Shown in pieces: positions 27,864-28,020 of a stretch of DNA of 64,000 nucleotides (position 1 is its first letter; the number at the start of each line of letters is the position of its first letter). The stretch comes from Patescibacteria group bacterium. GTDB taxonomy: Bacteria; Patescibacteriota; Patescibacteriia; Patescibacteriales; UBA12465. The translations under genes were made by a program, and so were the position numbers. The notes beneath the pieces are model-generated. The model worked only from the letters and a program-made list of their open reading frames with translations, did no database searches and was not told the origin of the DNA. Location of the stretch: positions 6,047 to 70,046 of the forward strand of contig JBAYIC010000005.1 in NCBI GenBank assembly GCA_041665845.1. The letters run 5' to 3'.

Positions 27864-27880
27864 ACCGGACTTAGCACTCG
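27864..27880 (-). repeat. 17-nt perfect inverted copy of the anticodon-like arm of the tRNA-like RNA
   Basis: Plus strand ACCGGACTTAGCACTCG (27864-27880) is the exact reverse complement of 27977-27993. On the minus strand it reads CGAGTGCTAAGTCCGGT, antisense to the cloverleaf arm. Confidence 0.9.
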
Positions 27881-27887
27881 TAAGATT

Positions 27888-27896
27888 ATTATAACA
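27888..27896 (-). promoter_or_regulatory. extended -10 promoter (TGTTATAAT), second copy
   Basis: The minus strand reads AATTTGTTATAATAATCTTA-CGAGTGC.., so the predicted start is about 7 nt downstream, just before the antisense box. TTTGTTATAATA is shared with 28026-28037. Confidence 0.45.
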
Positions 27897-27942
27897 AATT
27901 GGTTGAGACCGGTCAATGTGCGTATTATGTTTACTATTCCCA

Positions 27943-28020
27943 GATGTGGACCCGCGGGGAATCGAACCCCGGAAACCGAGTGCTAAGTCCGGTTTCGGAG
28001 GCCACTCCCGGGCCCACATC
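27943..28020 (-). ncRNA. non-canonical tRNA-like cloverleaf RNA (not a standard decoding tRNA by hand fold)
   Basis: Minus strand: GATGTGGGCCCG / GGAG-TGGC-CTCC / GAAACCGG-ACTTAGCAC-TCGGTTTC / CGGGG-TTCGATT-CCCCG / CGGGTCCACATC. The T arm is canonical. The closing stem is 12 bp, there are no junction nucleotides, the D loop is 4 nt and the anticodon-like loop is 9 nt. Confidence 0.55.

Follow-up and report, generated by a model that had tools for sequence, protein, structure and literature searches.

A compact tRNA-like RNA with a putative dedicated antisense RNA in Candidatus Falkowbacteria

We describe a locus in a 64,000-nucleotide stretch of contig JBAYIC010000005.1 (the window), which belongs to a metagenome-assembled genome of Patescibacteria whose closest relatives are annotated as Candidatus Falkowbacteria. 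Between an HU gene (27416-27697, plus strand) and a gene for a 92-aa helix-turn-helix (HTH)-like protein (29142-29420, minus strand), the minus strand appears to encode a dedicated RNA/anti-RNA pair, in which a small RNA (sRNA) would unfold or inactivate a second RNA that resembles tRNA-Ala and transfer-messenger RNA (tmRNA). We give this reading, drawn from the sequence and its relatives, a probability of about 0.6. The features of the pair are as follows.

27943 to 28020, minus strand: tRNA-like RNA gene, 78 nt, resembling the tRNA-like domain (TLD) of tmRNA
Both ends of the tRNA-like RNA, minus strand: leader GAUGU and trailer CAUC, read from the sequence
28015-28009 / 27954-27948, minus strand: acceptor stem of 7 bp, with G3:U70
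27947, minus strand: discriminator A (A73)
28008-27997, minus strand: D arm, 4-bp stem and 4-nt loop containing GG
27973 to 27995, minus strand: anticodon-like arm of the predicted fold, 7-bp stem AAACCGG/UCGGUUU and 9-nt loop ACUUAGCAC (27988-27980)
27977 to 27993, minus strand: target box in the arm, 17 nt, ACCGGACUUAGCACUCG
27971-27955, minus strand: T arm, canonical
28028 to 28036, minus strand: P1, extended -10 element (TGTTATAAT) of the tRNA-like gene, read from the sequence, with the start predicted at G28020 or C28021
27888 to 27916, minus strand: P2, predicted promoter of the antisense sRNA, TTGACC-17-TGTTATAAT with an upstream TG, 11/12 match to the consensus
27810 to 27881, minus strand: predicted antisense sRNA of about 71 nt, from about A27881 to the U tract of the terminator, by promoter and terminator scans
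27864 to 27880, minus strand: anti-box CGAGUGCUAAGUCCGGU, 17 unbroken pairs with the arm, beginning at position 2 of the predicted sRNA
27850 to 27862, minus strand: extension of the pairing according to RNAduplex, G.U pairs included
27810 to 27840, both strands: bidirectional intrinsic terminator, stem 27817-27833, predicted end of the sRNA and of read-through from P1, with a near-identical copy at 29079-29108

The complementarity between the two regions goes far beyond chance. The 17-nt ACCGGACTTAGCACTCG at 27864-27880 (plus strand) is the exact reverse complement of 27977-27993, just as the initial annotation of the window had reported, and a search of the 64 kb with up to three mismatches returned these two sites only, against a chance expectation of 0.04. 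None of 100 shuffles contained two or more matches to the 17-mer. A repeat search let the inverted repeat grow to 23 nt at 91% identity (27858-27880 / 27977-27999), and RNA duplex prediction (RNAduplex) lengthened the pairing to 29 bp (17 + 5 + 7) with the D arm included: UUGGA (27862-27858) pairs with UCCGA, and CCAUUUC (27856-27850) pairs with GGAGUGG of the D arm. The resemblance of a further 18 nt to the D-arm region, pointed out in the initial annotation, is real and is kept as complementarity in the relatives. Its description of the box as a diverged, inverted partial duplicate also holds: the anti-region is clearly recognisable as an inverted copy that has diverged from the 5′ half of the tRNA-like gene. 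The extent it had given for the 17-mer was right for the whole loop and wrong for the stem, which was said to contribute its 3′ part; on the minus-strand RNA the 17-mer consists of the entire 9-nt loop, flanked by 5 nt from the 5′ side of the arm stem and 3 nt from its 3′ side.

The target of this complementarity (RNA 1) is, by its predicted fold, a compact tRNA-like RNA with the acceptor/T half of the TLD of tmRNA. Read from 28020 to 27943 it runs GAUGU-GGGCCCG-GGAGUGGCCUCC-G-AAACCGG-ACUUAGCAC-UCGGUUU-C-CGGGGUUCGAUUCCCCG-CGGGUCC-A-CAUC, and pairing of the leader with the trailer (GAUGU/ACAUC) makes an acceptor helix of 12 bp. ARAGORN called the gene neither as a tRNA nor as a tmRNA. Rfam likewise gave nothing at gathering score at the locus in the window and in four relatives, whereas real tRNAs in the same loci are called; its best sub-threshold matches were the MALAT1-associated small cytoplasmic RNA, mascRNA (31.9 bits, gathering score 42.5), and tmRNA (31 bits, gathering score 47). 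In the alignment to the tmRNA model both ends of the model match, with 25 nt in place of about 330. The 3′ 25-mer GGGGTTCGATTCCCCGCGGGTCCAC is identical to the 3′ ends of tmRNA genes called by ARAGORN in three viral contigs, and it is this identity, together with the sub-threshold tmRNA match, that leads us to read RNA 1 as TLD-like. Our own covariance model of the RNA (R1) scored 104.7 bits in the window and 97-103 bits in five other lineages, and it found exactly one copy per locus (97-105 bits) in the six lineages. The acceptor, D and T stems are invariant, G3:U70 is present in 6/6 rows, and the T loop GGUUCGAUUCC and the UGG of the D loop are likewise invariant save for one G-to-A change at R57.

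We found no reading frame, no pseudoknots and no usable anticodon in the tRNA-like RNA. It shares with canonical tRNAs (RF00005) the elbow elements, T loop UUCRAUU and D-loop GG, and differs from them in an anticodon-like loop of 9 nt rather than 7, the sequence of which varies among lineages. A decoding tRNA with an expanded loop was rejected, since what would serve as the anticodon is not the same in all lineages. With G3:U70 and A73, the RNA has the classical identity set of alanyl-tRNA synthetase (AlaRS). From these sequence elements, the RNA might be processed, CCA-ended and alanylated; conservation of the leader-trailer helix is just as compatible with ends that remain paired.

Relatives were found by a genome scan and then by look-ups of near-identical HU proteins. 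The locus occurs in six lineages, namely the window together with L018, L012, L013, L021/22/23/25, L038 (complete genome CP066698.1) and L080/81/82, whose HU genes share 77-96% nucleotide identity. The scan pattern demanded the D-arm variant GGCCTCC and missed at least three lineages that were later found by synteny, so that the distribution is underestimated. Apart from its arm, the tRNA-like RNA hardly varies, even in the leader and trailer; this core has a rate of change as low as that of genuine tRNA genes on those contigs. The arm is the hypervariable part of the RNA, with three stem pairs that change on both sides. Between L013 and L038, where the HU genes are 96% identical and the tRNA gene is identical, the core agrees at 53/54 positions, the arm at 14/24 and the anti-box at 13/18; arm and box evolve much faster than their surroundings. 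The loop takes four forms among the lineages compared.

Window: loop ACUUAGCAC
L038: loop AUUUAGCAC
L012 and L013: loop AUUUGACAC
L021 and L080: loop AUUUAACAC

In each lineage the anti-box tracks the loop, and the stem positions behave likewise (for example ACCGG/CCGGU vs. GCCAA/UUGGC). Co-variation was counted over the 17-bp core with one cognate pair per lineage, which gives 102 cells. Pairing was found in 97 of these (95.1%), and 9/10 variable pairs had changed on both sides. Compensatory cells numbered 16, compared with 5.8 in shuffles, of which 0/500 reached the score, and sliding the partner by 1-3 columns left 19-38% of the cells paired. With all 29 pairs counted, 92.5% of the cells were paired and 11 pairs had changed on both sides. 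The D-arm extension was paired in 91.7% of its cells in the relatives, and its G.U pairs stand at the same columns in all rows. The initial annotation had proposed a comparison of arm and anti-arm across relatives; the two change in step, and independent divergence was not seen.

Co-folding, proposed there as well, favoured the predicted heterodimer by 7-13 kcal/mol in five of the six lineages. The tRNA-like RNA of the window reached -49.6 kcal/mol with its own sRNA and -23 to -40 kcal/mol with the sRNAs of other lineages; the cognate duplex was the best one in four lineages and tied with that of an orthologous sRNA in a fifth. When targets of the sRNA were predicted throughout the 64 kb, the tRNA-like RNA came out best at -49.6 kcal/mol, followed by a site at -34.8 kcal/mol, with a background of -16.6 ± 4.2 kcal/mol. 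This second-best predicted partner (2726-2830, plus strand) lies about 4 standard deviations from the background and is probably a chance match.

Two of the lineages provide natural experiments on the arrangement of the locus. L013 and L080 each carry two sRNA-like modules, which flank the tRNA-like gene and share its strand. The upstream module of L013 (reverse strand 804-910) is a close match (16/17) and forms an independent promoter-box-terminator unit; the downstream one, orthologous to that of L038, has drifted. In L080 it is the downstream module that matches at 16/17 positions, and the upstream one (reverse complement 3260-4030, at about 300-400) has no -35 element and matches poorly. 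The second modules suggest duplication or exchange of modules. Moreover, opposite the D arm the L080 sRNA reads differently (GGAGGCUUCUCU) and pairs nonetheless. Because of these module arrangements in L013 and L080, it is a pairing-competent sRNA, and not a DNA geometry, that appears to be maintained.

The sRNA module has a common layout in five aligned lineages: ATTGAC, a variable 17-nt spacer, TTTGnTATAAT, about 7 nt, the anti-box, an ACCAUU body and the terminator. The ATTGAC and TTTGnTATAAT of P2 are invariant in these five lineages, and the terminator is conserved in them; in L080 the layout is the same, with TATCTT as the -10. The sRNA contains a conserved ACCAUU(U/C) segment, and its 5′ part is predicted to be largely unstructured. 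P2 is near consensus, vs. an extended -10 alone in P1. The -10 of P1 lies 6-7 nt before GATGTGGG in all six lineages, and because this spacing is constant we place the predicted start at the leader G or one base upstream. The second promoter that the initial annotation had put ahead of the anti-box is predicted at 27916-27888 (11/12 plus TG), and its bidirectional terminator is present at 27810-27840, with the stem at 27817-27833 and flanking A and T runs. Its second copy of a promoter block stood in part. A 12-mer, TTTGTTATAATA, is indeed shared, but the repeat search locates it at 27898-27887 and 28038-28027, one base off the positions first given, and it does not amount to a duplicated block; it is simply two extended -10 elements (TGnTATAAT), and the two promoters differ in the relatives.

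Starting from this anatomy, conservation, co-variation and thermodynamic feasibility, we infer that both RNAs are transcribed, and we propose the following course for the outcome of pairing and its role in the cell. The sRNA (RNA 2) would descend from a partial duplication, in inverted orientation, of the 5′ half of RNA 1. P2 would make the sRNA of about 71 nt, with the anti-box first and a weakly structured 5′ region. The two RNAs would first pair at the 9-nt loop, which is exposed; the duplex would then extend over both the arm and the D arm and take the cloverleaf apart. The resulting long duplex (17-29 bp) would be a likely substrate of RNase III, which cleaves such duplexes in antisense systems, and the sRNA would thereby sequester or destroy the tRNA-like RNA. 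Because there is no terminator before the sRNA region, P1 transcripts would carry the anti-box in cis, and they may be made inactive. The arm would act as a fast-evolving address that is matched by the cognate sRNA only. The locus combines extended complementarity, compensatory co-variation and a promoter and terminator of the sRNA's own (the last two by prediction and conservation only), and the comparative data of six lineages support the idea, already put forward in the initial annotation, of an RNA and a matching anti-RNA that has a promoter to itself, the two sharing a terminator.

Several observations weigh against this proposal. ViennaRNA places a rod-like fold 0.2-5 kcal/mol below the cloverleaf, although the tRNA-like fold is the likelier of the two in view of the T-loop and GG motifs, which are universal. 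The promoters and terminators are consensus predictions. Departures from Watson-Crick pairing in the 17-bp core are divided between G.U and A.C (roughly 6 vs. 6 cells), and because A.C is about as frequent as G.U there is no clear wobble signature of selection at the RNA level; homogenisation of a quasi-palindrome at the DNA level could mimic the co-variation. The pair is degraded in L021, with three core mismatches, a C.A mismatch in the arm stem and a co-folding gain of -2.6 kcal/mol. The comparison comprises six lineages only, all from one clade, and its rows are not independent. Finally, three other HU lineages (L028-37, L039-44 and L045-54) have no such locus at this position, and because of them the RNA pair must be regarded as dispensable.

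It is unlikely that the pair is an RNA-only addiction or self-recognition module comparable to type VIII toxin-antitoxin systems, in which an RNA toxin is countered by an RNA antitoxin (SdsR/RyeA, CreT/CreA). The free tRNA-like RNA would then be harmful and a labile, strongly expressed sRNA would neutralise it; AlaRS, EF-Tu, SmpB or stalled ribosomes, for instance, could be tied up by an alanylatable, frame-less mimic of tmRNA, and specificity would be coded in the diversifying arm. A fuller version, which we hold to be just as doubtful, has a processed, CCA-ended and Ala-charged tmRNA mimic without a message block or divert ribosome rescue, with the sRNA as the sole brake and the arm as a lineage-specific 'lock'. 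A weaker variant makes it a non-decoding, Ala-tRNA-like donor or sensor, the level of which is set by the sRNA. Such a module would fit with the strength of P2 relative to P1, with the rate at which arm and box outpace their surroundings, and with the presence of G3:U70, A73 and a T arm and acceptor identical to those of tmRNA. It would also fit with the patchy distribution and with the content of the same HU-HTH gap in relatives, a zeta toxin or an HTH_31/M78 pair. As in the type VIII systems, both partners would be RNA and the antagonist would be dedicated to one RNA; unlike in those, no involvement of CRISPR or Cascade was seen here, and there is no relation in sequence. However, no mobile-element genes adjoin the locus, and L021 keeps its tRNA-like RNA with a weakened antisense match, which would not be easily tolerated if the RNA were a toxin. 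The toxin-antitoxin flavour is speculation. The type I/III toxin-antitoxin logic invoked in the initial annotation had to be given up, as there is no conserved open reading frame (ORF) and no protein toxin. Type I was rejected because the sole ORF shows RNA-type conservation and is truncated in L038 and L080, and type III because there are no tandem repeats and a 212-aa gene next to the RNAs in the window is absent from the locus in other lineages.

With the roles reversed, the sRNA would be an effector with other targets and the tRNA-like RNA a sponge or decoy. In favour of this, sRNA sponges are common in the literature, tRNA-linked ones occur in enterobacteria (3′ETS-leuZ), and the sRNA has its conserved ACCAUU(U/C) segment. 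Against it, the conserved parts of the sRNA body can all pair with the tRNA-like RNA itself. The anti-box varies with the arm, which means that no third partner constrains it, no other strong target of the sRNA was predicted in the 64-kb window, and a sponge would not require a tRNA-like core nearly as conserved as this one. We therefore regard this exchange of roles as improbable.

Little credence is likewise given to pairing in cis only, whereby arm and anti-box would meet in one P1 transcript, the long hairpin would govern processing or maturation of the precursor, and P2 would be irrelevant. The terminator scan found nothing between the tRNA-like gene and the anti-box, and the minimum-energy structure of the predicted 218-nt P1 transcript does hold the arm-box duplex. 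What speaks against it is that the -35 and -10 of P2 are invariant while the spacer between them varies, and that the cognate module of L013 lies upstream, behind its own terminator, and thus not on the tRNA-like transcript in the same way.

We also consider it improbable that the anti-region is a functionless relic of an inverted partial duplication, kept similar to the arm by template switching, quasi-palindrome correction or short-tract conversion. Its appearance as a diverged inverted copy and the lack of a G.U bias among the core mismatches both speak for a relic. On the other hand, the copy lies between a promoter and a terminator that are conserved, and in all lineages its orientation is the one that would yield antisense RNA; the L080 segment has been rewritten and is complementary nonetheless, and the fixed G.U columns that adjoin the core in all rows would have been erased by correction at the DNA level.

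An invertible DNA switch, raised as an alternative in the initial annotation, is very improbable. Here the 17-23-bp repeats would be recombination sites on either side of a 96-bp segment that contains P2 as well as the 3′ half of the tRNA-like gene; its inversion would create the junction GGTTCCAATACCGGACTTAGCACTCGGTTTCCGGGG. Inverted repeats do flank a promoter-bearing segment, and the contigs of three assemblies break at 27943-27949; these breaks, however, are at the edge of a block conserved among co-occurring species and not at the repeat. The contigs that extend across the locus agree in orientation throughout the six lineages, no recombinase domain was found among nine genes scanned with Pfam (23944-35645), inversion would destroy the conserved RNA, and the cognate box of L013 is on the other side of the gene.

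A small protein gene (ORF 27738-28019, minus strand) can practically be dismissed: public assemblies annotate it (P0141, P0142) and the frame is open for 66-106 codons in four lineages, but about 55 nt are invariant including third codon positions, whereas substitutions in the arm are non-synonymous, L080 and L038 have a stop after 27-37 codons, the ORF crosses a promoter and a terminator hairpin and has no Shine-Dalgarno sequence, and no homologue exists beyond the locus, the protein-database search having given two clusters only. Both RNA genes, P2 and two terminators all fall within this 93-codon ORF, and the hypothetical protein is a mis-annotation. Two further candidates were rejected. 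A two-piece tmRNA with the sRNA as a tag message in trans is not compatible with eight sRNA copies in which no frame or stop is conserved, nor with the unfolding of the D arm. Duplication of an integrase attachment site does not agree with a repeat that is inverted, covers the 5′ half and lies about 100 nt away, and there is no integrase.

Among known RNAs, the tRNA-like RNA has most in common with tmRNA (SsrA, RF00023), from which it shares the G3:U70/A73 acceptor, the T arm GGGGUUCGAUUCCCC, the GG of the D region and the last 25 nt. It differs in having 25 nt instead of about 330 between the halves, no tag frame or pseudoknots, a score of 31 bits vs. 47, a real D stem, and a CCA that is not encoded. 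The mRNA-like domain of tmRNA (resume codon, tag ORF and stop) is absent from these 25 nt, and no frame is conserved in the sRNA either. The RNA would work at most as a TLD alone, and it is not a tmRNA. In architecture, the best Rfam match is mascRNA, the MALAT1 tRNA-like element (RF01684), which is also a compact tRNA-like RNA with a reduced D arm and an extended acceptor; mascRNA is, however, eukaryotic and cut from a long non-coding RNA, and the match here lies below the gathering score. We know of no dedicated antisense partner of the mascRNA arm. In mascRNA the acceptor stem is extended by leader and trailer (PMC8457004). In Bacillus cereus, the non-decoding pseudo-tRNA 'tRNA-Other' lies within longer transcripts and has apparently been recruited to regulation (PMC3399842). 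Its sequence is unrelated and not tmRNA-like, and a co-evolving antisense sRNA has not been described for it.

As for the antisense side, pairs initiated at loops include RNA-IN/RNA-OUT of IS10, CopA/CopT, RNA I/RNA II and Sok/hok. The present pair resembles such classical systems in its long, near-perfect complementarity, in the meeting of a single-stranded end or loop with a hairpin loop, in the strong predicted promoter of the antisense RNA, in the loop as specificity determinant and in the expected action of RNase III. It differs from them in that the target would be a tRNA-like RNA and not an mRNA, a primer or an ordinary sRNA, and in that the antisense RNA would come from an inverted partial duplicate on the same strand and not from the opposite strand of its target. 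The Rfam match to RNAI is insignificant (17.8 bits). An sRNA with a cis-encoded antagonist that is processed by RNase III is found in CJnc190/CJnc180 (PMC8687705). The pair would be an antisense-controlled small RNA of a known kind, with a tRNA mimic as the target.

Full-text literature searches returned nothing on such an RNA in Patescibacteria or Falkowbacteria, and by its sequence it appears to constitute a new RNA family absent from Rfam. To our knowledge, almost nothing is known of regulatory RNAs in Patescibacteria (candidate phyla radiation), a group with tiny genomes for which genetic systems are lacking. The tRNA-like RNA would be a natural relative of tmRNA reduced to the TLD only, and a tRNA-shaped RNA that is the dedicated target of an antisense RNA with a very fast-evolving specificity region. 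If expressed, the pair would offer a compact model for the control of tRNA mimics and for the diversification of RNA-RNA specificity, as well as for the interplay of a message-less tmRNA mimic with AlaRS, SmpB or the ribosome. The locus also flags a recurrent mis-annotation, in which a hypothetical ORF is called across both RNA genes.

The gap between the HU and HTH-like genes is a variable hotspot. In L028-L037 its HTH-like gene encodes 91 aa. In L028 it holds a zeta toxin and small ORFs, in L030 an HTH_31 and a Peptidase_M78 gene, and in L029 two small ORFs; in L039-L054 it is empty (about 170 bp). The RNA pair is accessory cargo at a hotspot that holds toxin-type genes elsewhere. In the window, a 212-aa gene without assigned function intervenes between the RNA locus and the HTH-like gene. 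Homologues of this gene in five loci have no tRNA-like RNA nearby, and the relatives that carry the RNA pair do not have the gene. A link between the 212-aa gene and the RNA pair was rejected, as the two occur apart in other genomes, and because of this separate occurrence we link no protein to the RNA. PHROGs and PADLOC gave nothing meaningful for the 212-aa gene, the HTH-like gene and a 277-aa ORF (30502-31335), BLAST of the locus against phage and plasmid collections gave no match, and smpB was not found in the 64-kb window (phmmer, with an E. coli SmpB query), a result that says nothing about the rest of the genome.

A pattern search showed that the 30-nt terminator is repeated in direct orientation (27807-27839 and 29076-29108, 28/30 identical), and BLAST returned an exact 30-nt stretch. 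Between the copies lie both RNA genes and the 212-aa gene, and the second copy serves the HTH-like gene as its terminator. In relatives that lack the 212-aa gene there is only one terminator at that place, because of which the gene looks like an insertion flanked by the terminator repeat.

Searches beyond the relatives gave the following results. A metagenome scan with GGGCCCGGGAGTGGCCTCC returned four chance matches only, on GC-rich contigs. In viral contigs, a scan with a 25-mer found real tmRNA 3′ ends in three of four contigs, a 15-mer gave 25 matches of which none was recognised by R1, and a specific 32-mer gave nothing. One AT-rich viral contig (L005, IMG/VR contig 3300017775_000204) opens with an apparent 3′ part of a tmRNA that ends in GGGGTTCGATTCCCCGCGGGTCCAC (93-130), possibly a phage attachment site in the tmRNA gene of a low-GC host.

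Contigs of the same species from three independent assemblies (L001, L019 and L002; JGI, ENA and Logan) stop at 27943-27949, the 3′ border of the tRNA-like gene. A conserved block common to co-occurring strains or species, or a second copy such as the 3′ end of a true tmRNA, is a likely cause; the stops lie at the edge of the shared block and not at the inverted repeat, and branching of the assembly graph would explain them more simply. In the short contig L025, the sequence upstream of the P1 region (1369-1447) is unlike that of L021-L023, with which the contig is otherwise identical, owing to either a rearrangement or an assembly chimera. Ahead of the HTH-like gene, at 29440-29560, repeated motifs of the TAGACTTAAGT / AGTCTATAA type are operator-like in look.

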